Shown piece after piece: positions 20,697-47,253 of a stretch of 64,000 bases of DNA. The stretch's first letter is position 1. Each line of letters starts with the position of its first letter. Position numbers and translations under genes: made by a program. The stretch covers positions 1-64,000 of the forward strand of contig CAXGUD010000009.1 of NCBI GenBank assembly GCA_964012805.1. The letters are read 5' to 3'. This DNA comes from an uncultured Bacteriovoracaceae bacterium (GTDB lineage: Bacteria > Bdellovibrionota > Bacteriovoracia > Bacteriovoracales > Bacteriovoracaceae). Under the pieces are notes generated by a model. The model did no database searches. It saw only the letters and a program-made list of their open reading frames with translations, and was not told where the DNA came from.

Positions 20697-21878
20697 CTAG
20701 GGAGCTATATTTTTTTGAAGGCCTTCTTCTTCCCTTCCTTCCAAATGTAAAGACTTGCCCAGATCTAGATAACTTGGCCCTGGACACTCAATAATGGCCC
20801 CTCCCAAACAGACATCATCTTTATAAAAAACAATGCTTTGCCGAGGCGTTACCGCCCTTTGAGGCTCCTTAAAACTAATATGTAGGACACCATTTTCATT
20901 AATTTTATCAATCCTACACTCTTGGTCTTTTTGCCTATATCTTACTTTGGCCTTACAACTAAATGGAAGATCAAAAGGCTTTTCCCCAGTCACCCACGAT
21001 GCTTCAGAAGCTGTCAAAGTGTCTGTATAGAGAGCGGGGTGTTTTTCACCACGGCCCACATAGACAATATTTTTTTCAACATCTTTTTTAAGGACAAACC
21101 AAGGTTCTCCCGGTCCACCGAGGCCTAAACCTTTTCGTTGTCCAATTGTATAGTAAGATGAACCTGTATGCTCACCTACAACTTCTCCATCAAGAGTTTT
21201 AAAAGGGCCTTTTGTAAAGTGAATGTACTGACCTAAAAAGTTCTTGAAATTTCTCTCACCAATAAAGCAAATACCTGTACTATCCTTTTTATCTTTTGTA
21301 GAGAGGTCGTATTTTTTAGCAATCTCTCTAACTTCCCTCTTCTCTAAATCACCTATTGGAAATAAGACCTTCTCAAGAATAGAGCTTTTAATCGTATATA
21401 AAAAGTAACTCTGATCTTTTGAATTATCCCTTCCCTTTACAAGACGATTACTTTTATTCTGGCAATAATGTCCCGTAGCCAAAAAGTCTGCCCCCATTTC
21501 ATTAATTGCCTTTTCCAAAAAAACTTTAAACTTTATTTCTCGGTTACAAAGTATATCGGGATTTGGTGTATATCCATTTTCATACTCTTTAACGAAATCT
21601 TCGAAAACATTCTTTCTGTATTCTTCAATAAACTCAACGCTATAATAAGGAATGCCTATTTTTTCACAAACAGAAACAACATCTTTGTAGTCCTTGGATG
21701 CCTGACAATTACCGTTTTCATCTTTCTCATCCCAATTCTTCATAAAAAGGCCTATAACATTATAGCCTTGTTCTTTCAGGACAAGCGCGCTCACAGAGGA
21801 ATCAACACCTCCAGACATTCCTACTACCACAGTCTTGGTAGCATTTTCTTCTTTTTCCTTCTCAGTAAACTGTCTCAT
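20697..21878 (-). CDS. mnmA: tRNA 2-thiouridine(34) synthase MnmA (D-type)
   Basis: SGGVDSS, MKNW, TPNPDILCNREIKF, ATGHY, KDQSYFL, DSTGICFIG, TIGQRKGL, KVRYRQ. Confidence 0.95.
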   Translation of the reverse strand: MRQFTEKEKEENATKTVVVGMSGGVDSSVSALVLKEQGYNVIGLFMKNWDEKDENGNCQASKDYKDVVSVCEKIGIPYYSVEFIEEYRKNVFEDFVKEYENGYTPNPDILCNREIKFKVFLEKAINEMGADFLATGHYCQNKSNRLVKGRDNSKDQSYFLYTIKSSILEKVLFPIGDLEKREVREIAKKYDLSTKDKKDSTGICFIGERNFKNFLGQYIHFTKGPFKTLDGEVVGEHTGSSYYTIGQRKGLGLGGPGEPWFVLKKDVEKNIVYVGRGEKHPALYTDTLTASEASWVTGEKPFDLPFSCKAKVRYRQKDQECRIDKINENGVLHISFKEPQRAVTPRQSIVFYKDDVCLGGAIIECPGPSYLDLGKSLHLEGREEEGLQKNIAP

Positions 21879-22489: not shown

Positions 22490-23755
22490 TTAAAAAGTAA
22501 CATCCTTCTCTTTTCGAGGGATTTTTAAAGACAGATCAAGCTCCACTTCACCTTGACCATATATTTCCTCTTCGATTTCTTCTGGGTCTGGAAGGGTACG
22601 GAACTTACCATTTTTGTCAAAGAAACCAAAGGAACTCAGCGTTCCGTTTCCAATAATTTTTGCCCCTGCTCCTAATCCATTATAAATAGCAACGTGAGTT
22701 CCTTTAACCAAAAGTCCGATGACTTCCTCCTGAAACCTCAAAACGACCGTATCATTGTTTTTAAAATAGAGGAAGCAAGGTCTCCTCTTTTCTAATTGAG
22801 CAAACTGAATAAAGACCTTAATTGGAGAAGATATATCATTGTCAGGGTCCTGCTTATAATTAACTACCTCACATATTGAATAACGGACGTTTTTAGTTTT
22901 ACTAATATAAACATTTTTGGTCTTTCTATCTATTTCAACGACCCTAGCATCTTCATCAATTTTTACTTCATCTAATGCTTCCACTTTATCTTGCCCTACG
23001 TAAAAATTATGTACTCCATTATGATCACCAATAGGTGCACCATCTTCAAAAATAAAAATTCCACCATTGTTAAGCATTCCGGGAGGAGCATTCTTTTCTA
23101 TATAATAGGAAAAGTTTTTTTCCTTCATAAAACAAAGGCGGTTTCTCTCGCCCTTTTTAACAAAAGGTATCCCTAGAGATTTGGCTATTTGTTCAACCTC
23201 GCTCCTTCTTATGTCGGCACAAGGCAAAAGCAAATTCTCGAGGTGCTTGCGTTCTAAGCCTGATAAGTAGTAAGACTGGTCCTGCTCCTTATCATTAGCT
23301 GAAATTAGTTGAAACTTCCCAGTTTTTATATTCTTTACAACTTTTGCATAATGCCCTGTCGCTATAAAGTCCGCTCCTAGCTTTTTCGACTTTTCAACAA
23401 GCAAATCAAACTTCAAAAGATTACAGTAGACACAAGGAGAAAAAGCTGTCCCTCCCAACCTTGCAGTCAAAACTCTATCAAGCACTTTTTCCTTAAAAAG
23501 ATGAGAGGCATTGACTCCATAATATGGTATTTCAAGCTTTTCGCAGACCTCCTGAATACTAGAAAGGCTTTTAGTCTGGCATGTCCCTAAGCATTCTTCC
23601 TCGGCCTTTTGAACTGTTACCTCTTTATAAAAATTAAATGTGACGCCAATTGGCTCTAACCCTTGCTTTTTTAATAAATAAGCTGCAACAGTAGAGTCCA
23701 CGCCTCCAGTCATCCCAACTACAACTTTTTTTCTATCTTTCCCTTTATTTACCAT
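22490..23755 (-). CDS. Divergent MnmA-like tRNA thiolase paralogue (CxxC + C type)
   Basis: TGGVDS PP-loop, SPCVYCN, ATGHYA, DQSYYL, RLCF; C-terminal domain divergent. Confidence 0.85.
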   Translation of the reverse strand: MVNKGKDRKKVVVGMTGGVDSTVAAYLLKKQGLEPIGVTFNFYKEVTVQKAEEECLGTCQTKSLSSIQEVCEKLEIPYYGVNASHLFKEKVLDRVLTARLGGTAFSPCVYCNLLKFDLLVEKSKKLGADFIATGHYAKVVKNIKTGKFQLISANDKEQDQSYYLSGLERKHLENLLLPCADIRRSEVEQIAKSLGIPFVKKGERNRLCFMKEKNFSYYIEKNAPPGMLNNGGIFIFEDGAPIGDHNGVHNFYVGQDKVEALDEVKIDEDARVVEIDRKTKNVYISKTKNVRYSICEVVNYKQDPDNDISSPIKVFIQFAQLEKRRPCFLYFKNNDTVVLRFQEEVIGLLVKGTHVAIYNGLGAGAKIIGNGTLSSFGFFDKNGKFRTLPDPEEIEEEIYGQGEVELDLSLKIPRKEKDVTF

Positions 23756-29294: not shown

Positions 29295-32200
29295 TTAGTC
29301 TTTCTTTTTTGGTAAAAAGAAAGGGTGACAATACTTTGCGAAAGTCGAGTAAATTTCCTTACCACTCACCTCTTCATCTACAATCTGATTAATAAGTGGT
29401 TGGATTCTATTTATGAGGCCTTTTGTTTCGTAATCGTTTAAAACTACAATAATAGGTATCCTATAATTTTGGTTATTACGATCTCCCCTCACCTCCTTAA
29501 CGATAAACTCCCCGTGCCCTTTGGCCAATTTCATATGCGTAATCAAACAATGAAATTTTTGGTTTTGTAAAAACTTGACGGCCTGGTGCGAATGAGAGGT
29601 AGAAAAAACTTTAATCTTTTCATCATTAAACTTTTCTGAAAGCCTTACCGCGGTTCCCTTATCATTCACAGCGATAAGGACTGACAAAGGGCTATTACCC
29701 ATGTAAGTGTGCTCTGGTTTTATATTTTCAGATTTATTTTTATTAAGTGCAATAGAAAAGTCCCTGAGACCTTTCTGGGGCTTTTTTGCGACTTTTTTAA
29801 CTTGTTTCTTAGAGGCCTTTTTTGCTTGAATCCCAGAACCTCCTTTAAGAAGCGCCCCCTCATTTTCAACTGGCTGATCACCAATGACTGCTTCTTCACC
29901 AATGACTGCTTCTTCACCAATGACTGCTTCTTCACCAATGACTGCTTCTTCACCAATAACTTCGTCAGCATCATTTTGGTAGGGGTCTAGTTCTTTATCC
30001 GTGAAGGAAACTTCTTCATCTTTTAAATCTGAGCCCTCTGATTCATAAAAACCCTTAAGAAGTCTGCATACCTCTTCTCCATCAATATCACTTTCTTCTT
30101 CTTTCAATGAAAGGTCTTTCCTAAATTGATTAAATATTTCAAAGGCCATGGGGTAAGAATTCGACATGCTTGGTGTCGTTAATTTAGAAACGTCGTCCAA
30201 GATGTAAAGAGAAATGGCTTCTATTTCCTTCGCCTCTGATAAGTAGTTAAACCAAAAACCAGATGAAGTGGAACATATATTTTTCCAGGATGTCTCATCA
30301 CTTATCCATGCTTTTGCAGAGTTTATTCCTGTTTTCCACCTAAGAGAAAAAGCAAGGTAATTCTCGAAACTACTCATTTGAATACTAACAACGCGACCCT
30401 CGTTCCCTGACTCTTTCTTTACAAAGTTCAAAATGCTTTTTATGGCCAGGTTTAGTTTTAATGAAAAATCTTTGAGGTCTACTCCCTCTTTTTGGAGATT
30501 ATTAAAGAGAGCTTCAAGGTTTCCTTTAATCCGATCTTTATCATCACACTGAAATTCAGTCGTAAATATTTTTTGCCCTGACGGAAAAATGCTATAAATT
30601 CCACCATAGAAAGGTCTCGCAAGAAGAGTTAGAAAGTTTTTAAATACTGTACGCCCTCTATCTATTGGAATAAATAAACCTGGTACAAAGCTATTGGCAG
30701 GATCATGCTTTTTGTTGAAACTTATTATTCTTAACTCACCCCTCTCAATTCTTTTTTCAAAATTTGTGGGAAGTTGAAATGGCAGCTCTCTCAGCCAAGC
30801 TGGAGGAACCAAAACGGAAAAGATACCTTCCATTTTCATCCGGCTCAACTCTACAACCCAATCTATTTGCTCTATGTTCCAAAGTTTAACAACATTGTAT
30901 CTTGCACTTTTTAATAGTATTTCGGTAAGTTCTTTTTCGTTAAAAGAATAATGGTCAAAAACTTTTTTTACATACAAAATGGTATGAGTCTTTTTGTTCA
31001 ATAAAGCCTGTTCAGGCTGGATCTCGATTTCTTCATCACCCAAACTTAGCTCTTCCCTTTCATCTGTTTCAGTTAGAACCGGTCCATCCAATTCAATTTC
31101 CTCTTCCTCGAAATAGAGATTGACAACCTCTTTATCAAAGTTAGATGGAAGTGCCTTTTCGGTTGTTGTAGAAACGAGTATTTCTTGAGTTGTCTCTTTC
31201 TCCTCGACCTTATCTTGCCCCTTCAGCCTCATCTCTGTAAAGATATCGACACCAAGAGAATAAGCATTGTCTATGGCCGGAACTGAGTTCTCACCATCGA
31301 TCGCAAAACTGTACAAAATAAGAGCTTCCACTTCACTTGTTTTAGGAAAAAAGTTAAACCAGCTACCGGAAGTCGAAGAGCATATTTTCTTCCAAACTGG
31401 TATATCCTTTGACCAATCCAAAACAGAGTTTTTGCCTGTCTTCCATCTTATTGAGAGAGCAAAAAGGTTATTAGCATAACCCATTTTCATTTCTACATTT
31501 TTAGGAGGGTTTGGTTCAATCATTGTCACAGCGTGAAGAATAGTTTTTGCACCAACTGCTACTTTAGTTTTATGAAGCATAAGCTTTCTAGCTTTCTTCA
31601 TTAAACTATCATATAAGGTATCCAAAGACTTTGAAGCTCTGTTCAACTCAGTTGTTTTGGCCATTGAATAAATATTTGTATTAACTGGAAACAAAGCATG
31701 AATTCCAGAGTAGTGAGCTTGACCCACAAGAGGAACCATCCCTTCTAATATTAAACTTCCTCGATCACTTGGTATGGAGAGAATCGGTAACTTAAAATAG
31801 GGTAACTCGCCCTTTTTTTGAAGACAAGAAATCCTTAATTTTCCATCTCTAACATGCTTGATAAATAAATCTGGCTCATTCTTTCCTTCAAGAAGCCAAA
31901 GTGAGGGGACAAAAAGAGTAACGACTTCATCCCCAACAAGGGAGACAGCCTCGTTCATCCAATTCTCTTGAGTTGCATTCCAGTTTTGTATCTTAACACC
32001 GCCGCTAGCTTCGATAATAGAGCTCAAATCCTTTAGAGTTACCCCATGCCCTGAAATTGCAGTTTTCACGACATAAATACCATGGCCAGTTCCTATTTCC
32101 ATTTTTTCTGTTTCTGGTCTTACATCACGTTCTTCTAACTCTTCTTTTTTAATTCCAACATACTTCTTCAAAATTAAGTTTTGGGAATCAGCGATCCCAA

Positions 32201-33095
32201 AAGTTTCAATTAATGAGTTAACTGAACTGCCACCCACAGGAAAAATTTTTAAACCTAAAGAGTAAGCATTCGTAATTTGTGGAAAAGAGTTTTGAGCGTC
32301 CATTGCAAAAGAAATTAACCCAAAAGCCTCAATAGTATTATTTTCTGGAAAAAAATTAAACCAAAGAGAACTGGTGGATGAAGCAATTCCTGTTAAAGAA
32401 TTATTTTCCTCAACTAGCGCTTTAACATTAGATAAACTCGTTTTCCAGCGGCATGAAAAGCCAAATAAGTTATTAGCAAAACCTAAACTTATTTCTATTT
32501 TATCAGGCCTTTTTGCTTCATGATCATAAATCCATCTTATGAGTGACTTTAAAGCGATACTTACCTTAACTTTGTGAAGCATTAGCTTTTTAACTTTTTT
32601 AAGAAATTCTTTAAAAAGTTGTTCTAGATCAAATGAGAGTGTCTCTAGACCCGTTATATTATTATGGGCCAAAACTTCTGTTTGTTGAGGAAAGAAAGAG
32701 TGTAAACCTCTATCTACACTATCTCCCATTAAATTTACCATGGCTTCAAGAATTAAACTTCCCCTATCGCTAGGTATACTTAAACTAGGAAATGTGTAAT
32801 TAGGGGCATCAAGCTTTTTATTAAAATAAACAATTCTAACCCTTCCAGAATTCAAAGCATCAAGAAAGTCTCCGGGAAGACTATCGGGAGCAGTTAGGGC
32901 CCAAACAGATGGAATGATTACAGTTGAAACACCATTACTGACAAGGTTGGAGATCTCTTTAACCCAATTACCCTGGTGAGCATTCCACTCAACTATCTCT
33001 ACATCTTCAATAGTCTCTAGAAGCAAATTAAGGTCTTGAAAACTAATTCCTTGACCTAAAACAGACCTTTTACTTACATAGATTGTATGGTTCAT
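29295..33095 (-). CDS. 1266-aa protein with three ~285-aa internal repeats and a C-terminal pseudo-receiver domain
   Basis: Repeated motifs W-N..W, (V/I)P.xW, IP(S/I)DRG, RWKT, WFN and N(A/S)Y at aa ~3-285, 338-619 and 704-988; C-terminal SVLIAV...CLITHMKL...IPIIVV resembles REC. Confidence 0.8.
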   Translation of the reverse strand: MNHTIYVSKRSVLGQGISFQDLNLLLETIEDVEIVEWNAHQGNWVKEISNLVSNGVSTVIIPSVWALTAPDSLPGDFLDALNSGRVRIVYFNKKLDAPNYTFPSLSIPSDRGSLILEAMVNLMGDSVDRGLHSFFPQQTEVLAHNNITGLETLSFDLEQLFKEFLKKVKKLMLHKVKVSIALKSLIRWIYDHEAKRPDKIEISLGFANNLFGFSCRWKTSLSNVKALVEENNSLTGIASSTSSLWFNFFPENNTIEAFGLISFAMDAQNSFPQITNAYSLGLKIFPVGGSSVNSLIETFGIADSQNLILKKYVGIKKEELEERDVRPETEKMEIGTGHGIYVVKTAISGHGVTLKDLSSIIEASGGVKIQNWNATQENWMNEAVSLVGDEVVTLFVPSLWLLEGKNEPDLFIKHVRDGKLRISCLQKKGELPYFKLPILSIPSDRGSLILEGMVPLVGQAHYSGIHALFPVNTNIYSMAKTTELNRASKSLDTLYDSLMKKARKLMLHKTKVAVGAKTILHAVTMIEPNPPKNVEMKMGYANNLFALSIRWKTGKNSVLDWSKDIPVWKKICSSTSGSWFNFFPKTSEVEALILYSFAIDGENSVPAIDNAYSLGVDIFTEMRLKGQDKVEEKETTQEILVSTTTEKALPSNFDKEVVNLYFEEEEIELDGPVLTETDEREELSLGDEEIEIQPEQALLNKKTHTILYVKKVFDHYSFNEKELTEILLKSARYNVVKLWNIEQIDWVVELSRMKMEGIFSVLVPPAWLRELPFQLPTNFEKRIERGELRIISFNKKHDPANSFVPGLFIPIDRGRTVFKNFLTLLARPFYGGIYSIFPSGQKIFTTEFQCDDKDRIKGNLEALFNNLQKEGVDLKDFSLKLNLAIKSILNFVKKESGNEGRVVSIQMSSFENYLAFSLRWKTGINSAKAWISDETSWKNICSTSSGFWFNYLSEAKEIEAISLYILDDVSKLTTPSMSNSYPMAFEIFNQFRKDLSLKEEESDIDGEEVCRLLKGFYESEGSDLKDEEVSFTDKELDPYQNDADEVIGEEAVIGEEAVIGEEAVIGEEAVIGDQPVENEGALLKGGSGIQAKKASKKQVKKVAKKPQKGLRDFSIALNKNKSENIKPEHTYMGNSPLSVLIAVNDKGTAVRLSEKFNDEKIKVFSTSHSHQAVKFLQNQKFHCLITHMKLAKGHGEFIVKEVRGDRNNQNYRIPIIVVLNDYETKGLINRIQPLINQIVDEEVSGKEIYSTFAKYCHPFFLPKKKD
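29878..29957. repeat. Perfect 18-bp tandem repeat (4 copies + partial) encoding EEAVIG on the minus strand
   Basis: TCACCAATGACTGCTTCT x4 followed by TCACCAAT. Confidence 0.95.
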
Positions 33096-36000
33096 TCTTT
33101 TCCCTCTAAATCAACCTTTTTTGAAAAACTCTCAACAGCTTTAACACCCTCCTGAAACTCTTTTTCAGAGACTGATAAAACAAAACGGCAATAATCAGGT
33201 ATACCTGTCCATTCACTACCATTTATAAGGATACCTGTAGAGAAAAAGAATGCCTCGTAAAAATTTTGTGAATTTAAAATATAATTTTTTTCTTCGGAAA
33301 AGTGACTAGAATTAACTGTTATTTTCTTCCCAAAATAACTTCTTGGAGCAGCCACTAAAAAAAGGCCTCCTTCCGCAGGAAGCACATCCCAGCGGGCTTC
33401 CTTAAGCTTTTTAGTTAAAAACAAAGCTCGATTTCTTAGAAGAGATCTTTGCTCGGCCAGAAATGTTACAAGTGAGGGATGTGAATCATTAAACTTCTTT
33501 ATAATCTTCTTCACTGCGTAAAGTGTAGCGAAATGAGGCTCAAATGAATTCATTTCGCTTAAGTTTTTGGCAATTTCTGAATGAGAACAAAGGGCATAAC
33601 CAAAACGTAACCCACCAGCTGCGAAAAGCTTTGAAACACCTCCAAGCATTACCCATTCAAAATCATCATTAAGAACTTTTCCAATTTTTGTCATTTTAAT
33701 TGTAGAATCAAACTCTAAACCATTAAAAACATGGTCCAAAATAAGCCTTGCTTGATGGGACTTGATGACTTCAATAAGCTCAATAATCTCCTCTTCTCTA
33801 TAAAGGGCTCCAGTTGGGTTTACTACTGGAAAGTTTAAAAATACGTATGCTCCTTTTTTATTTTCTAAGGCCTTATTAAGAGCTGATGGGGTAAATTTAA
33901 ATGAATCCTTCTCTTCGGTTGAAAAAGTAGAAGCATCCGCTCCCACAAATCCTGCACAAGCGACAAATTCTCCATAGGCACCCTGTGGAAAAATTATAGG
34001 ATATTTCTCTATTGCACAAATTTTACTCAGGGAGTGAAAAAGTGGCGCAATACCATTGCCATAAATAAATGATTTTTTGTGCAGTTCTCCTCTAGTGAAG
34101 CCAAAAGACTTTTCAAACATTCTTTTTAGATCTTCATCAGGTTCATAATCTTGTTTGTTTAAAGAAAATGGATTTCTTAAAAAGCCTTCAAACAAATCAA
34201 TTCTTAAATCCTTCGGAATAGGAAAACTATTTTCTCCATAGTCAAGCCTTACTGTCTTATCATCACGAGGCAATCTCTCTCTCGCCATTGAAGGGTGCTC
34301 CATCATTTCAACAGCATCTACTGCCAAGGGCTTAAATTTTTTTTCAATATCGTTCGAAACACCTCTTTTAAGAGAAACTTCTTTTTTTTGTCCATCCTCT
34401 AAAAGTCTAAAACTTAATAGTTCATCGAGAAGAACTTCATAATAAAACTGGGTTAAAATTGGTGTTCGACTATAAGATAATTCTGCGGCTGAATTCAACT
34501 GCTGTACTAAAGGAGCGTTTCCAATTAGGGAAAAACAAAGCCTTAAATTTTCATAAACCCTATTTTTAAATAAGTCGCAATTTATAATCACATGATCTGG
34601 CAAAGACTTTTCTCTTAAATAGGAAAGGATTGCATTCTTTTGTGGCTGACTTGAAATATCAAAATAATCAGACATATCCAGGATAAGGCGTGTAGAATTT
34701 TCTTTCGTTACATTAAAAATTCTTTCAACATTTTCTTCCAACTCATTTTCAAAAGTATTAAAAAAACAAACAAGTAAATCTGGTTTTAATTTTTCAACTA
34801 AGTCTTCAATCAACTTTACTCTTCTCGGGCAAGCGAACGACTCTACTTCCCAGGGGTAAAACTCACTCATTCTTTTTAGTTGTGGATCTTGATCAAAAAG
34901 AACTTCATCTATAAGAACTAATTTGGGCCTGTAAAGGAGAAGAATATTATTTATACACTCGTGCCTCGATGGAGAAATTAAAATTTGATCTTGATTGACA
35001 GGCAAATGATAATAAGAAGTCAGAAAGCGCGACAGTTTCATTCTCAATTCAGATCGGCCTTGAGTTTTCTCATAGGGGAGAAGTGAAGGTGATCTTAATA
35101 CTTCAGATAGTTCAGATAAAAAGTTTACTCTTTCCTCAAAAATATCTTTCTCATTAGAGTAAAGGTCCATAAGCTGCTTTGCTTCTGAAAAAGAATCACT
35201 CTCTAAAAAGTTTAAAATGTTCTTCACTTCTCTTCTTTTGGGAAGATGGGCTTCATAAACACTTAACGAATGTGCTATTCTTCCACCATTTTTAGAAAAG
35301 ACCTCTGCTGTTTGGGCATTAATAGGCTCTCTTGCATCAAGACCCATAAAAAACTCAAACTTATGACCCGTCCTTTTTTCAATTTCTACAAGGACTTTAA
35401 TATCAGTATCTTCGGCTTGAAGAACCTTTGTTGACCATAGTTTATTTACTGTAAAACCTCTTCTCTTAAAGAGTTCTTCCAAAATAGCTGTCCCAGGTCT
35501 CCCTCCCAAATTCATTATAACAGACCCTCCTGCCTTGAGAACTTGTAGTGACTCCTCAAGTGCCGAGGCGATTAGCCCTAAACCGAACTCATCTTCAAGG
35601 TGACCTTTGATACTGCAATAATTACTTAAGTCGTAAAGCTGTTCATCGCTTGAATGCTCAGAAATATTTTGGATTAATTTTTCTGGATCAGGGCTTAAAA
35701 CCTGGGGAATACACCCAATAACCTTATCAAGAAATATTTCTTTTTCAATTATGAGAGAAAGAAGGTCACTTTCTTCAAAAAGGACACTCTCCCATAAATT
35801 TTTCCCTGAATAAGTTTTAGCTGCTTTACCATCTTGATCAAACGAATTAAAAGCTAAGTTTAGTTTTGCACAAATTATGGCCCTTGGGTTTATGTCCAAA
35901 CCATAAATAAAATCTAAGTCTGTATTTAAAGCAAGAGATAAACATATCCAGCCATTTCCACAACCCAATTCAGAAATTTTCTTCCCTGTAAAAGTCGAGT

Positions 36001-36319
36001 GCGGCAACCTGGATAAACCTTCATAAAAAGTAAATGACCACTCCTCAGGGGAAAAGATACTAGGGAATTGAATCAACCTAAGTTTATTTCTGTGACCTCC
36101 CAAAAGAATCGTTTTAAAATTAAAGTGATACTTCTCTAAAAAGATGTCTTTATCATTCTCTTTTTCATAGAATTCAAAAAGAAGATTAAGGCACTCGTAG
36201 GTGTTTTTAATTTCCTCTATCTCAGAAGATTCGAATAGAATTCCCTTAAAAGCTTCATAAGCTTTTTGACTGGATAATTCACACTCTTTAAGAAAATTTT
36301 CAATAGAAAAATGGGTCAT
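33092..36319 (-). CDS. Plant-type methionine S-methyltransferase (MMT-like: SAM methyltransferase + PLP aminotransferase-like domains)
   Basis: PSIFSPEEWSFTFYEGL, ELGCGNGW, GLDINPRA, ESDLL, IGCIPQVL, LSNYC, EDEFGLGLIA, GGRPG, QAEDTDI, FEFFMGL, IAHSLSVY match plant MMT; C-terminal NPTG and GGVSK..GGLRFG; 1075 aa. Confidence 0.88.
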   Translation of the reverse strand: MTHFSIENFLKECELSSQKAYEAFKGILFESSEIEEIKNTYECLNLLFEFYEKENDKDIFLEKYHFNFKTILLGGHRNKLRLIQFPSIFSPEEWSFTFYEGLSRLPHSTFTGKKISELGCGNGWICLSLALNTDLDFIYGLDINPRAIICAKLNLAFNSFDQDGKAAKTYSGKNLWESVLFEESDLLSLIIEKEIFLDKVIGCIPQVLSPDPEKLIQNISEHSSDEQLYDLSNYCSIKGHLEDEFGLGLIASALEESLQVLKAGGSVIMNLGGRPGTAILEELFKRRGFTVNKLWSTKVLQAEDTDIKVLVEIEKRTGHKFEFFMGLDAREPINAQTAEVFSKNGGRIAHSLSVYEAHLPKRREVKNILNFLESDSFSEAKQLMDLYSNEKDIFEERVNFLSELSEVLRSPSLLPYEKTQGRSELRMKLSRFLTSYYHLPVNQDQILISPSRHECINNILLLYRPKLVLIDEVLFDQDPQLKRMSEFYPWEVESFACPRRVKLIEDLVEKLKPDLLVCFFNTFENELEENVERIFNVTKENSTRLILDMSDYFDISSQPQKNAILSYLREKSLPDHVIINCDLFKNRVYENLRLCFSLIGNAPLVQQLNSAAELSYSRTPILTQFYYEVLLDELLSFRLLEDGQKKEVSLKRGVSNDIEKKFKPLAVDAVEMMEHPSMARERLPRDDKTVRLDYGENSFPIPKDLRIDLFEGFLRNPFSLNKQDYEPDEDLKRMFEKSFGFTRGELHKKSFIYGNGIAPLFHSLSKICAIEKYPIIFPQGAYGEFVACAGFVGADASTFSTEEKDSFKFTPSALNKALENKKGAYVFLNFPVVNPTGALYREEEIIELIEVIKSHQARLILDHVFNGLEFDSTIKMTKIGKVLNDDFEWVMLGGVSKLFAAGGLRFGYALCSHSEIAKNLSEMNSFEPHFATLYAVKKIIKKFNDSHPSLVTFLAEQRSLLRNRALFLTKKLKEARWDVLPAEGGLFLVAAPRSYFGKKITVNSSHFSEEKNYILNSQNFYEAFFFSTGILINGSEWTGIPDYCRFVLSVSEKEFQEGVKAVESFSKKVDLEGKE

Positions 36320-42777: not shown

Positions 42778-45700
42778 ATGACAACGAAAGAACAATTATT
42801 TTTAGAGTCTTTGGAAAAGACTCCTGGTTTTTTGCACTTTGAAGATGGAACTTCTTTTTCTGGAACACTCAATATTGAAAGCAATGACCCCCGTTTAGAA
42901 AAAGGAATATGGGGGGAAGCTGCTTTTACGACAGGCATGACCGGATACCAAGAAACAATGACGGACCCATCTTTTTTGGGACAACATATTATTTTTAGCT
43001 CACCCCATATTGGGAACTATCCTTCCGATGAAAAAGTAAACCAATCAAATAGTTGTCATGGAACATCGATTATAGCCAAAAGCTTTTCTCCAAATAAGTT
43101 TCTTATGGAATGTGAAGCCCCACTTTTTACATGTCATGATACCAGGGCACTTGTTAAGTTTATAACTGGAAAGAAAGGCAATCATAAATCTGTTATTACA
43201 GTTAACTCGAAAAGCCCCAGTTCCGAAGAGTTTGAGAAAGAGGAACTTAAATGCAACCGATTAGACTTGGTAAGTTCGGAAGGACCCTCAAAAGTCCTTA
43301 CGCCTGGAAAAAACCCTATTGTCCTCATTGATTATGGTTGTAAAAAAGCCATCATAAATAATCTAAAAAACCTAGGGTTTCCTCTCGTTATTGTAGGACA
43401 CAAAACAAAAGCTTCAGAAATTTTAGATTTTAAACCAAGAATGATTTTCCTCTCCAATGGACCTGGAGATCCAAGGTCCTACTCAACTCAAATCGAAGAG
43501 GTAAAGAAGCTGCTCACTTTTCAAATTCCAATAAGAGGAATTTGCCTTGGTCACCAATTAATCACTCTAGCTCTTGAAGCATCTATAATAAAATTACCAT
43601 TTGGCCAAAGGGGTGTTAACCATCCTTGTATCGAACATGAGACTGGTAAAGTTATCATAACCAGTCAAAACCATGGTTACGCTGCTTCAAAAGAAGAACT
43701 TACGAGCAAATTTTCTGCCGAAAATAATATCTTAGGTAAAGAACTTTTTATTTCATATACATCTCTCTTTGATAACTCAGTAGAAGGCATCTCATCAACC
43801 GATCATTTTCTCAAAACAGTTCAGTTTCATCCTGAAGCTTACCCTGGTACACATGATGGAGATGGTTTTTTTAAAGAAATAAAAAATTACCTAACTGAGA
43901 AACAAAACCCAATTGAAGTTTCTAGTCTAGAGAAAGTAGTAGATTTAAGCTCAGGCTACAAGAAAGAAGTCCCTTATTCAAAGGTCCTAATTATTGGTTC
44001 CGGGCCTATAAAAATTGGCCAAGCTTCTGAGTTTGATTATTCAGGAACTCAAGCCTGTAAAGTTCTAATGGCCCTGGGAATAGAGGTTGTTCTTTTAAAC
44101 TCAAACCCCGCGACCATTATGACCGATTCAGAAATGGCCACCAAAACCTACCTTGAGCCTATTACCAAAGAAACGCTCAAAAAGATTGTTGAAAAAGAAA
44201 ATATCCAAGCTGTTCTTTCCACCTTGGGAGGTCAAACGGCACTAAACCTTTGTATTGACCTTGAAGAAGAAGGCTACTTTAAAAAGAACAATGTCGCTCT
44301 TCTTGGCGCGAATACGGATACCATTAGAAAAACAGAAGACAGAGAGCTTTTTGCAAAAGAACTTTTAACACTTGGTTATCACACAGGAGAAAGGTACTCA
44401 GCTTTTAGCCAAGAAGAATGTATACAACTAGCTCATGACCAAGTTGGTTTTCCCCTCATCATTAGAAGAGACTTTGCTTTAGGAGGGAAAGGAGCTGCCC
44501 TTGTTTACAATGAGAAGGAACTTGTCGAAGTCTTTTCAAGCGACATCAAATTTCCCATTACTCTTGAGCGGTCTTTAGTTGGCTGGAAAGAGATTGAACT
44601 CGAAGTCATGGTTGATAAAGAAAAAAATGGGGTTATAATTTGCTCCATTGAAAATATCGATCCATGTGGTGTTCATACTGGAGATAGTATTACAGTTGCT
44701 CCTGCTCAAACGATAAGTGATCAACTATATCAAAACCTTAGGACGATGGCCCTTAATGTAGCAAAACACATGGGTGTTGTTGCCGGCGGAGCAAACGTTC
44801 AGTTTGCTATCAATCCTCATAATGATGATGATATTGTTGTTATTGAAATGAACCCGAGAGTCTCAAGGTCTTCAGCTTTGGCTTCCAAAGCGACTGGTTA
44901 CCCGATTGCAAAAATTTCGGCCCTACTCTCCCTTGGGTATACTCTTAAAGAAATTCTTAACGATATAACAAAAGCCTCTCCAGTAGCTTTTGAACCGACA
45001 CTTGATTATGTAGCTGTAAAAATACCTCTTTTTCCTTTCAGCAAATTTCCAACGTCTTCTAAGGTATTAGGTCCTCAAATGAGATCTGTGGGAGAAGTTC
45101 TGTCACTGGGAAGTACCTTTAATGAAGCTTTTATGAAAGCACTAAGGAGTCTGGAACTAGGACTTGAAATTCCTGAACTTTCAAGGATTCCCAATATACC
45201 ACTTGATTTGAATCAGGACTTTCTAACAAAAAGACTATCTTCGCCCCATCAGTTATCCTTACTAACTTGTATGGAAGCTTTAAGAAAAGAAGTAAGCTTG
45301 AATAAAGTCCACGAGCTTACCCAAATTTCGCCTTGGTTTTTAGAGCAAATTAATGTTCTCGTTAATGCTGAAAATAAAATCAGAAACAGAAAAAATAAAG
45401 AAATTAAAAACATTACCAAAGAAGAGATGCTTTGCTACAAAAAACTAGGGATGAGTGATAAGCATATTGCGACCCTCCTTGAGAAAACTCAAAAAGAGGT
45501 CCTCTCCTTTCGCTTAGAAAATAACCTATCTCCTGTTTATAAAGCAGTTGATACATGTTCAGGGGAATTCTTCGCTGAAACTCCTTATTTTTATAGTACT
45601 TACACCCAAGTTTGTGAAGCATCTCCTTTAAGTAAAAAAGGGAAATCTGTAGCTGTCCTAGGATCAGGTCCTAATAGAATCGGTCAAGGCATCGAGTTTG

Positions 45701-47253
45701 ATTATTCTTGTGTTAAATCGTGCCAACGACTTAGAGAAAAGAATACTCAAGCCATCATGATTAACTCAAACCCAGAAACAGTATCAACTGATTATGATAG
45801 TTCTGACCGCCTTTACCTTTCACCTCTTTACTCGGAAGATATTTTTGATATCCTTCTTCACGAAAAGCCTGACGGTATTATAACTCCCTTTAGTGGTCAA
45901 ACAGGTATTGCTATAAGAGAACACATAGAAAAGAGCTTTAGAAAAGAATTCGCATCCTTTAATTTTTTAGGACCGAACCTTGAAAGCCTCCAGTTGACAG
46001 AAGACAGAAAACTTTTTAGTGACCTTCTAAAAAAAGTTAATATTTCCCAAACAAAAGCGGTGGAGGTTAAGGGCCATAAAGCTCTAATGAACGCAATTAT
46101 AGATGACATAGGCTTACCTGCTATTATTAGACCCAGTTATGTTATAGGTGGTGAATCCATGTATATCTTTAACTCCTATGAAGATACCCGAAAGCTTCCA
46201 CCATCCTTACTTGAACAGCTTGAAAAAAAGGAGACCGTTTTTCAAGTTGAAACTTGCCTCGAAAGAGCAATTGAATACGATGTTGATCTTGTAAGAGACG
46301 AATTTGGAAACACTCTTTTTACAATATGTGAACATATCGAACATGCAGGTGTTCACTCGGGAGACTCAGGAATGATATCTCCCCCAGTAAAATTAACAGA
46401 AAGTATGCTCAAACAAATAGAATCAATCTCAATTCAACTTTCAGAAGCACTCAATATTATAGGACCAATTAACTTTCAATATGCCGTAAAAAATAACGAA
46501 GAAATTTATTGTATTGAAGCTAACCCTAGAGGTTCTAGAACTCTTCCTTTCTTAAGTAAGGCAAATGATATAAGTATTCCTGGAATCGCCACAGATGCCA
46601 TGCTAGGTGAAAGTATTAAAGAATATAAAAAGAAAGATGATCCTCCTTTTTGTGTGAAGCAGTCTACTTTTCCATTTGATAGATTCCTTCAAGACAAATC
46701 AATTCTAGGCCCAAAAATGCGCTCTACTGGAGAAACTTTTGGGATGGATATTGATAAAGAGCAATCCGTCCTTAAATCTTATCTTGGAAATTACCCAAAC
46801 CTACTAGGACCGGGAAAACTGCTGATCTCTCTTGCAGATAAAAATAAAACGGTGATTTTGCCTTACATAAAAACCCTTCATCAAATGGGTTATCGATTTA
46901 TGGCAACTCAAGGAACTTACCAATTTATAAAGAAACAGGGACTCCCTTGTGAAAAAGTAACCAAAATTGCCGACGATACTGGTCTTTCCATTTTAGAAGC
47001 TCTTAAAGATTCGAAGCTTAAAATGGTTCTAAATACCCCGATGAACCCAAAGTCATCTAAATCAGACGGAGAAGAAATAAGAAATACTGCTATTGCTTAT
47101 GGTATTCCATGCTTTACCCGACCAGAAAATATAATCGCCATTATAGAGTCTCTTATTGGCTCTAAAGGAAGTGAGCTTATACCAATAAGCCTCCAGGAAA
47201 AGTTTTTTACACCATCAATAAATAACAATCAGACAACTGAAGGCACAATCTAA
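42778..47253 (+). CDS. carAB: Carbamoyl-phosphate synthase, fused small (CarA) and large (CarB) subunits
   Basis: CarA motifs (TGYQE..TDPS, LSNGPGDP, GICLGHQ, SQNHGY, QFHPE) continue in frame into CarB (GSGPIKIGQASEFDYSG, GVHTGDS, EMNPRVSRSS, GPNRIGQGIEFDY, MGS domain). Confidence 0.95.
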   Translation: MTTKEQLFLESLEKTPGFLHFEDGTSFSGTLNIESNDPRLEKGIWGEAAFTTGMTGYQETMTDPSFLGQHIIFSSPHIGNYPSDEKVNQSNSCHGTSIIAKSFSPNKFLMECEAPLFTCHDTRALVKFITGKKGNHKSVITVNSKSPSSEEFEKEELKCNRLDLVSSEGPSKVLTPGKNPIVLIDYGCKKAIINNLKNLGFPLVIVGHKTKASEILDFKPRMIFLSNGPGDPRSYSTQIEEVKKLLTFQIPIRGICLGHQLITLALEASIIKLPFGQRGVNHPCIEHETGKVIITSQNHGYAASKEELTSKFSAENNILGKELFISYTSLFDNSVEGISSTDHFLKTVQFHPEAYPGTHDGDGFFKEIKNYLTEKQNPIEVSSLEKVVDLSSGYKKEVPYSKVLIIGSGPIKIGQASEFDYSGTQACKVLMALGIEVVLLNSNPATIMTDSEMATKTYLEPITKETLKKIVEKENIQAVLSTLGGQTALNLCIDLEEEGYFKKNNVALLGANTDTIRKTEDRELFAKELLTLGYHTGERYSAFSQEECIQLAHDQVGFPLIIRRDFALGGKGAALVYNEKELVEVFSSDIKFPITLERSLVGWKEIELEVMVDKEKNGVIICSIENIDPCGVHTGDSITVAPAQTISDQLYQNLRTMALNVAKHMGVVAGGANVQFAINPHNDDDIVVIEMNPRVSRSSALASKATGYPIAKISALLSLGYTLKEILNDITKASPVAFEPTLDYVAVKIPLFPFSKFPTSSKVLGPQMRSVGEVLSLGSTFNEAFMKALRSLELGLEIPELSRIPNIPLDLNQDFLTKRLSSPHQLSLLTCMEALRKEVSLNKVHELTQISPWFLEQINVLVNAENKIRNRKNKEIKNITKEEMLCYKKLGMSDKHIATLLEKTQKEVLSFRLENNLSPVYKAVDTCSGEFFAETPYFYSTYTQVCEASPLSKKGKSVAVLGSGPNRIGQGIEFDYSCVKSCQRLREKNTQAIMINSNPETVSTDYDSSDRLYLSPLYSEDIFDILLHEKPDGIITPFSGQTGIAIREHIEKSFRKEFASFNFLGPNLESLQLTEDRKLFSDLLKKVNISQTKAVEVKGHKALMNAIIDDIGLPAIIRPSYVIGGESMYIFNSYEDTRKLPPSLLEQLEKKETVFQVETCLERAIEYDVDLVRDEFGNTLFTICEHIEHAGVHSGDSGMISPPVKLTESMLKQIESISIQLSEALNIIGPINFQYAVKNNEEIYCIEANPRGSRTLPFLSKANDISIPGIATDAMLGESIKEYKKKDDPPFCVKQSTFPFDRFLQDKSILGPKMRSTGETFGMDIDKEQSVLKSYLGNYPNLLGPGKLLISLADKNKTVILPYIKTLHQMGYRFMATQGTYQFIKKQGLPCEKVTKIADDTGLSILEALKDSKLKMVLNTPMNPKSSKSDGEEIRNTAIAYGIPCFTRPENIIAIIESLIGSKGSELIPISLQEKFFTPSINNNQTTEGTI

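Follow-up and report, generated by a model that had tools for sequence, protein, structure and literature searches.

The window analysed here, a stretch of 64,000 nucleotides on contig C9 (CAXGUD010000009.1) of an uncultured Bacteriovoracaceae bacterium with a 4.47 Mb genome rated 100% complete, encodes a Group III (plant-like) methionine S-methyltransferase (MMT), designated P0001 (Table 1). The reading frame is uninterrupted over 1075 amino acids from its ATG start and contains seven motifs of plant MMTs, PSIFSPEEWSFTFYEGL at residue 86, GCIPQ at 202, LSNYC at 231, EDEFGLGLIA at 242, GGRPG at 272, QAEDTDI at 301 and FEFFMGL at 321. Each of these occurs in 99 to 120 of the 120 members of a plant set (the best matches to a Selaginella query, comprising 93 named land plants and 27 sequences assigned by 52-62% identity), two of the seven patterns having been relaxed by one position for this count. 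Methyltransferase families of Pfam match residues 102-233 and Aminotran_1_2 (PF00155) matches residues 749-1060 (E 9e-30), while the top PDB sequence match is the methyltransferase MmtN (7vvv, E 2.3e-10, residues 89-322). The first-pass annotation of this DNA, made from its letters alone, had called a full-length plant-like MMT of ~1075 amino acids; its coordinates were exact, all seven motifs were found, and the family call was correct. The gene is not an assembly artefact, since an orthologue with 89% identity and the same neighbours is present in another genome of the genus and the gene is present in sequencing runs. At least half of its words occur in 10 of the 23 listed runs (four of these flagged as a possible source) and part of it in 19 of the 23, from 12 studies, and those runs that contain it and state a habitat are marine or seawater metagenomes.

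Plant MMTs and their dual-domain bacterial homologues have been named Group III, known from the Deltaproteobacteria and Oligoflexia in the available part of the published account (PMC9135737). P0001 is a member of this group in a new host class, the Bacteriovoracia, and as a gene it adds to the group just this further class, of marine bacteria from a predatory lineage. A plant-like MMT in a bacterium, the headline of the first-pass annotation, had hence already been published and comes as no surprise, and the "few" deltaproteobacterial and oligoflexian homologues that it mentioned do exist, but are more numerous and also occur in other phyla. Among 7986 candidates scored, 642 proteins of similar length match P0001, with named homologues in the Oligoflexia, Bacteroidota, Cyanobacteria, Acidobacteriota, Kangiellaceae and bdelloid rotifers. 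Across 1027 columns P0001 shares 45% identity with the Pseudobacteriovorax antillogorgiicola enzyme (P0005), and over the full length 34-36% with plant MMTs. Within its own class the gene is rare, with matches in three of 238 genomes, namely its own genome, one of two others of the same genus (the one without a match is only 68% complete) and a 75% complete genome with a divergent match in two pieces; four of 400 other genomes sampled from the phylum contain a match. A recent transfer of P0001 was rejected, as its GC content at third codon positions (20th percentile) and codon use (74th percentile among 1868 genes) are typical of the genome.

Table 1. Positions of the Group III MMT gene, its predicted domains and other open reading frames (ORFs) discussed in the text.
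Feature	Positions	Strand	Basis or remark
Group III (plant-like) MMT gene, P0001	33092..36319	-	ATG start, 1075 aa; homology and model
N-terminal helical segment, residues 1-77	36089..36319	-	DSSP of AlphaFold2 (AF2) model
Class I S-adenosylmethionine (SAM)-dependent methyltransferase domain, residues 78-360, MmtN homologue	35240..36088	-	Pfam, PDB sequence match, alignment
Degenerate aminotransferase large domain, residues 375-645	34385..35197	-	hhalign, profile, Foldseek, complex model
Complete fold-type-I (class I/II) pyridoxal 5'-phosphate (PLP) subunit, residues 660-1070	33110..34342	-	Structure and profile comparison
K897 codon, predicted PLP Schiff-base lysine, motif GGVSKLFAAGGLRFG	33629..33631	-	Alignment to solved aminotransferases
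1266-aa repeat protein ORF	29295..33095	-	
MnmA-like tRNA thiolase gene, first	20697..21878	-	
MnmA-like tRNA thiolase gene, second	22490..23755	-	
1491-aa ORF	42778..47253	+	

Domain architecture of P0001

The three domains of P0001 and the conserved residues of its PLP site are evident from both the sequence and the structure models, the AF2 model of the full chain having a mean pLDDT of 91.7 and a pTM of 0.89. Aminotransferase-like C-terminal regions had been noted on first pass and are indeed present, but the retained PLP site and a degenerate middle aminotransferase domain had been overlooked. The methyltransferase domain carries the GxGxG motif at residues 119-123 (G119/G121/G123), and the SAM-binding residues of MmtN, as given in the available part of PMC9135737, map to D142, S184/L186 (by motif, the HMMER alignment being loose there) and C203. 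The single-domain MmtN enzymes of Group I (Roseovarius indicus, 7vvv) and Group II share this SAM-binding domain with P0001, but have only ~305 amino acids. By homology, the domain would very probably convert methionine and SAM to S-methylmethionine (SMM) and S-adenosylhomocysteine. Several MmtN positions nevertheless differ. Of its methionine-binding residues, E127 and R132 correspond to S209 and K214 in P0001 (N and A in plants), which counts against this reaction, and E250 aligns to K320, with E322, kept in 120/120 plants, two residues on; the phosphate pocket of the MmtN trimer (P169/R183) is replaced by L241/E255. An acceptor other than free methionine, to which the loss of E127, R132 and the pocket could point, is however improbable, given a mean identity of ~52% to plant MMTs over this domain and the fact that the plant enzymes deviate from MmtN likewise yet are active in vitro, according to the available text of PMC11464771.

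The C-terminal domain forms a complete PLP subunit in which R691-D693-E696, G756, Y782, N834, D862, F865, S896, K897, R905 and R1045 are the residues of interest. It superposes on the aminotransferase 6f77 with Z 41.7 (rmsd 2.6 Å, 385 residues aligned), and K897 aligns with the lysine of the SK...G.R.G motif of solved aminotransferases. On alignment of the class I/II aminotransferase set to solved enzymes, we take K897 to be the Schiff-base lysine, D862 and N834 the residues contacting the cofactor ring, R905 the phosphate arginine, R1045 the carboxylate arginine and Y416, in the middle domain, the tyrosine contributed by the partner. Fold and PLP-binding residues are shared with class I/II aminotransferases (6f77, 1gd9), 1-aminocyclopropane-1-carboxylate (ACC) synthase (1b8g), GnmY and LmbF/CcbF, from which the domain differs in its low identity (only 17-20%) and in the Phe three residues past the PLP aspartate, where such enzymes usually have Tyr. 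Whereas these enzymes are usually homodimers, the single chain of P0001 is predicted to provide both halves around a single site.

The other half would be the middle domain, which carries a conserved Y416 and an E613-x-x-Y616-S617-R618 motif. BLASTP found no match between the middle and C-terminal domains, but profile methods did, hhalign aligning them over 180 columns with E 4.5e-5; the middle domain also matches the profile of aspartate aminotransferase 2gb3 (E 7e-7), and when it is modelled alone all the Foldseek entries listed are of the PLP fold. Modelled as two chains together with PLP, the middle and C-terminal domains reached a docking score of 0.92 against 0.00 for the best control, the pass mark being one that 116 of the 157 complexes with solved structures attain, as do 2 of 215 mismatched pairs; at least 93% of contacts recur between runs, with a partner pLDDT of at least 82. 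In the modelled interface Y416 and residues 613-623 of the middle domain face E696, G756, E784, S896 and residues 900-905 of the C-terminal domain, just as the partner subunit of aminotransferase dimers faces the PLP loops. The middle domain is thus predicted to be the partner half of a one-chain pseudo-dimer with one PLP site, although the docking result may reflect the likeness of these halves of one protein to solved dimers, and likeness is not binding. A more distant family of longer proteins (P0279, P0294, P0299, P0313 and similar rows; 1243-1796 amino acids) shares both the methyltransferase and the PLP domain, preceded by 300-900 additional N-terminal residues without a Pfam match, and the four members examined keep the PLP motifs.

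The PLP site in plant and non-plant enzymes

The finding of most weight is the residue contrast between the plant set and a non-plant set (n = 172) made up of the 120 best matches to P0001 and 52 further rows of 900-1150 amino acids among 150, with at least three named eukaryotes; the aligned rows are related, so that the counts are not independent. The predicted Schiff-base lysine K897 is found in 168/172 non-plant rows and in 0/120 plant rows, and similar contrasts hold for R905 (171/172 against 8/120), Y782 (170/172 against 1/120), G756 (171/172 against 0/120), R691 (168/172 against 3/120), S617 (166/172 against 2/120) and R618 (170/172 against 7/120), while the arginine that probably binds the alpha-carboxylate, R1045, is present in 170/172 non-plant rows. 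The four non-plant rows without the lysine include two named eukaryotes (Rotaria and Mastigella) and one apparent alignment slip. When positions conserved in at least 95% of non-plant rows are taken as fixed, the losses in plants amount to 10 of 29 for the PLP domain and 2 of 10 for the middle domain, against 2 of 61, both conservative, for the methyltransferase domain. The methyltransferase domain of P0001 itself agrees at 61/61 positions fixed in the non-plant rows and at 125/178 fixed in the plant rows, and its SAM-binding residues are common to 120/120 plant rows. Land-plant MMTs (EC 2.1.1.12; Selaginella P0198, rice P0377) resemble P0001 in length, domain order and all methyltransferase motifs, but lack K897 and have mostly lost R905, Y782, G756 and the RLDYGEN and YSR motifs.

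The retention of the PLP-site residues in non-plants and their loss in plants suggest a bifunctional bacterial enzyme, with a PLP site that is likely intact, and a plant tail that is likely a decayed site. Two observations weigh against decay in this simple form, namely that plants retain D862 (119/120), R1045 (115/120) and Y416 (101/120), and that 59/120 plants have a Lys one position past K897, where most bacteria have Glu. Neither the intact PLP site nor the pseudo-dimer nor the decay in plants was described in the literature searched, in which subscription papers were thinly covered; the published account of Group III, in its available part, treats the enzyme as having two domains and does not discuss a PLP site or a middle aminotransferase fold (PMC9135737). 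In the amoebozoan Mastigella, a transcript codes for an MMT homologue (P0214) whose PLP motif is degenerate, perhaps a second loss among eukaryotes. Full-length Group III MMTs also occur in records of the bdelloid rotifer Rotaria (P0058, P0109, P0158 and P0163), where they branch with Bacteroidota rows; most have the PLP lysine and one has Glu, and contamination or merged gene models are possible.

Candidate reactions at the PLP site

The best explanation of this architecture, which is put forward tentatively and with somewhat less than even confidence, is that a single chain first produces SMM and then transaminates it at the predicted single PLP site. Its conservation suggests that the C-terminal domain probably binds PLP and is catalytic and, should it do so, SMM would be a reasonably likely substrate, given the fusion and the lack of any other SMM sink. 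The weakest link is the transamination itself, which would yield 4-dimethylsulfonio-2-oxobutyrate (DMSOB). DMSOB is unstable and would lose dimethyl sulfide (DMS), or alternatively, if decarboxylated by some enzyme, would reach dimethylsulfoniopropionate (DMSP) via an enzyme of the genome resembling betaine aldehyde dehydrogenase (BADH). Transamination is favoured because the nearest folds of the C-terminal domain are aminotransferases (prephenate and aspartate aminotransferases at Z 40-42, against Z 36-37 for C-S lyases and ACC synthase) and the carboxylate arginine R1045 is kept. To judge by the title of a paper in a reference list, an unusual transamination of SMM is reportedly part of DMSP synthesis in plants. 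The Group I mmtN cluster of Novosphingobium also favours it, since it pairs mmtN with a PLP-dependent aminotransferase, together with a hydroxyacid dehydrogenase, according to the available part of the supplement to PMC9135737. Weak support comes from two rotifer gene models in which a Group III MMT is fused to a flavin mononucleotide (FMN)-dependent hydroxy-acid dehydrogenase.

A number of observations count against this explanation. Residue 865 is Phe in P0001 and in 170/172 non-plant rows, where four of the five solved aminotransferases shown have Tyr (3ftb has Phe), and this replacement of the usual Tyr argues for non-standard chemistry. No NCBIfam family scores above its cut-off for P0001, and likeness of fold leaves the reaction unspecified; no partner gene, be it for a decarboxylase, a dehydrogenase or another function, is conserved beside the MMT; no assay of a bacterial Group III PLP domain was found in the literature; and DMSP was produced by only one of the four Group III strains tested, P. 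antillogorgiicola, in the available part of the published account (PMC9135737).

The main rival is cleavage of the C-S bond of SMM, by alpha,gamma-elimination to DMS, 2-oxobutyrate and ammonia or to DMS and ACC, SMM being handled as SAM is by ACC synthase and GnmY. We consider this unlikely. ACC synthases are among the top profile matches of the C-terminal domain (E 4e-30), and both ACC synthase and GnmY are members of the aminotransferase superfamily that eliminate a sulfonium leaving group, as described in the available parts of PMC1282579 and PMC10491745; the eliminase LmbF has Phe236 three residues past its PLP aspartate, as in D862/F865 of P0001 (PMC11794154, in its available part). Elimination also agrees with the failure of three of the four strains to make DMSP and with the absence of both partner genes and a homocysteine S-methyltransferase (HMT). 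Yet true aminotransferases rank higher in both sequence and fold, and the ACC synthase profile match misses the region of the sulfonium-binding Glu47. E696 lies in a GE motif that is shared with ordinary aminotransferases. The top NCBIfam match, GntC, is generic and lends elimination no specific support; identity with the GntC cyclodehydratase was rejected, an ordinary aminotransferase of the same genome matching that family at 5e-83. Were elimination correct, P0001 would be a one-chain overflow valve for methionine and SAM and a new source of DMS.

About as unlikely is a genuine PLP site that serves another amino acid (e.g. methionine) or acts as a PLP or amino-acid sensor regulating the methyltransferase, comparable to the aminotransferase-like domain of MocR/GabR regulators. 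The kept lysine indicates cofactor binding and not a substrate, the middle domain has GabR and PdxR among its closest structural neighbours, and the retention of the whole domain by plants after loss of the lysine fits a structural or regulatory role. P0001 has, however, no DNA-binding domain in Pfam, and the fusion order and active-site motifs persist in the four distant relatives of 1243-1599 amino acids examined, which fits coupled chemistry. That P0001 acts simply as the plant enzyme does, with SMM as end product or osmolyte and an idle tail, is improbable: the domain structure is as in plant MMTs and the genus has genes for onium osmolytes (betA, the BADH-like enzyme and a BetT-like carrier), but K897, R905, Y782 and G756 are kept at 98-99% across homologues of 28-45% identity, and there is no HMT for a plant-type cycle.

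Activity at the PLP site, if borne out, would give the aminotransferase-like tail of MMTs a function and account for that of plants as the remnant of an enzyme, and could mean that bacteria have a further, so far uncounted, route to DMSP or DMS. Under the methylation pathway a 2026 review, in its available part, names mmtN and burB, with no mention of the Group III form (PMC13360808), and Peng et al. 2022 considered the purpose of SMM production in Group III bacteria hard to predict (PMC9135737, in its available part). The intact PLP site makes this role testable with one protein and one mutant.

Descent of the plant enzyme and genomic context

In three trees, built from sequences outside Groups I and II, the plants group together with good support within the non-plant rows, and P0001 lies within the branch that holds plant MMT and the P. 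antillogorgiicola enzyme. With four N-terminally extended relatives as outgroup, a sister position of plants to the whole remaining ingroup was rejected on 952 columns (p-AU 0.0039, LG+G4). The methyltransferase domain alone (283 columns, mixture model) did not reject it (p-AU 0.43), which counts against a settled root. A clade of plants with P0001 was not rejected (p-AU 0.126), but was set aside as it appears in no free tree. In sequence P0001 is not especially close to plants; the plant-bacteria evolutionary link proposed on first pass is real for the family, while P0001 itself is nearer to Pseudobacteriovorax. The intact PLP site is taken as ancestral because ordinary aminotransferases and the outgroup have it too, and according to the available text of PMC6284425 algae yielded no MMT, the enzyme emerging in the land-plant ancestor. 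Together with the trees, these two points make a transfer from bacteria to plants the probable direction, and land-plant MMT likely descends from a bacterial gene of this type after decay of its PLP site.

P0005 resembles P0001 in full-length homology, in E784 and L898 and in the lack of linked DMSP or methionine-cycle genes, and the two share a branch (SH-like 100, SH-aLRT 94) that is unsettled in the methyltransferase-only tree. This branch carries E784 with L898 (or F or R at 898), positions at which 109/173 rows have Y and E (the type of the freshwater Silvanigrella enzyme, for instance), and it includes the lone Group III strain shown to make DMSP. The placement of P0001 beside that strain, this branch signature and a complete genome without HMT are what the present locus adds. 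A joint reading, in which bacterial Group III is the ancestral two-step form that both makes SMM and uses it up at the PLP site of the pseudo-dimer, the swapped acidic residue of E784/L898 marks a marine branch feeding DMSP or DMS, and plants acquired the gene from bacteria and lost the lysine, with SMM becoming the end product, is rather doubtful.

The neighbours of P0001 are a histidine kinase gene, divergent and upstream, the gene for a genus-specific repeat protein of 1266 amino acids, downstream and overlapping the MMT stop by 4 bases, and a subtilase gene. The repeat protein consists of three units of ~285 amino acids with a weak receiver-domain match (E 2.6e-4, below the cut-off), without an NCBIfam match and, for the first unit, without an Atlas match; its relatives occur only in this genus (3/238 genomes), with paralogues on contigs C36 and C52, and it probably has no part in the action of the MMT. 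When 598 ORFs from 88 loci were clustered all against all, no operon partner was shared between lineages and only synteny at the level of the lineage emerged; 47 neighbours, selected at roughly one for each set of similar loci, included no HMT, decarboxylase or non-ribosomal peptide synthetase by Pfam. One scanned neighbour is an aldehyde dehydrogenase beside an amino-acid kinase and looks like proA/proB. A proB-like amino-acid kinase, once with a proA-like dehydrogenase, adjoins the MMT at L038, L046, L051 and L088 (a marine lineage and a Bdellovibrionota genome), possibly hinting at an osmotic-stress link. In one deep branch a short-chain dehydrogenase lies 3' of the MMT (L068:9092-9982 and nine similar loci), which may be synteny.

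Group I mmtN is found clustered with DMSP genes and Group II mmtN often adjoins HMT, arrangements that P0001 does not share; the Group III gene has likewise been described as unlinked to DMSP or methionine-cycle genes in the available part of PMC9135737. Plants pair MMT with HMT, while the search for SMM-cycle genes suggested on first pass found no stand-alone HMT in this complete genome, the sole PF02574 match being MetH, encoded in a metF-metH pair. A plant-type SMM cycle is unlikely in this bacterium because of this absence. DMSP synthesis, which had also been proposed, is possible but unsupported, as no pathway genes are linked to the MMT in this genome and only the one Group III strain produced DMSP. 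Three PF02784 matches considered as an SMM decarboxylase are best taken, on length and neighbours, for speA, lysC-lysA and a lysA-like gene beside an aspartate kinase; the one of them that was scanned fell below both cut-offs. The BADH-like enzyme scores 657 bits against a cut-off of 669, and aldehyde dehydrogenases of the BADH kind accept DMSP-aldehyde in plants (PMC11464771, in its available part). With this enzyme the DMSP route would not be blocked at its last step, although the betA, BADH-like and BetT-like genes have no link to the MMT. As a partner of the MMT the BADH-like enzyme was rejected: it is confined to the genus (3/238 genomes), but since betA is present the co-occurrence is explained by conversion of choline to betaine. 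DMSP lyase of the PF16867 type, the only lyase family searched, was found in 0/5 genomes, and dsyB gave weak PF00891 matches only. Promoter and terminator scans at P0001 were at chance level, and in metatranscriptomes only contigs of 151-258 bases, in three of them, fall on the gene, which does not demonstrate transcription.

Elsewhere in the window, two MnmA-like tRNA thiolase genes are encoded, the second without a match for the C-terminal domain, and the 1491-amino-acid ORF 3' of pyrB encodes fused small and large chains of carbamoyl-phosphate synthase.

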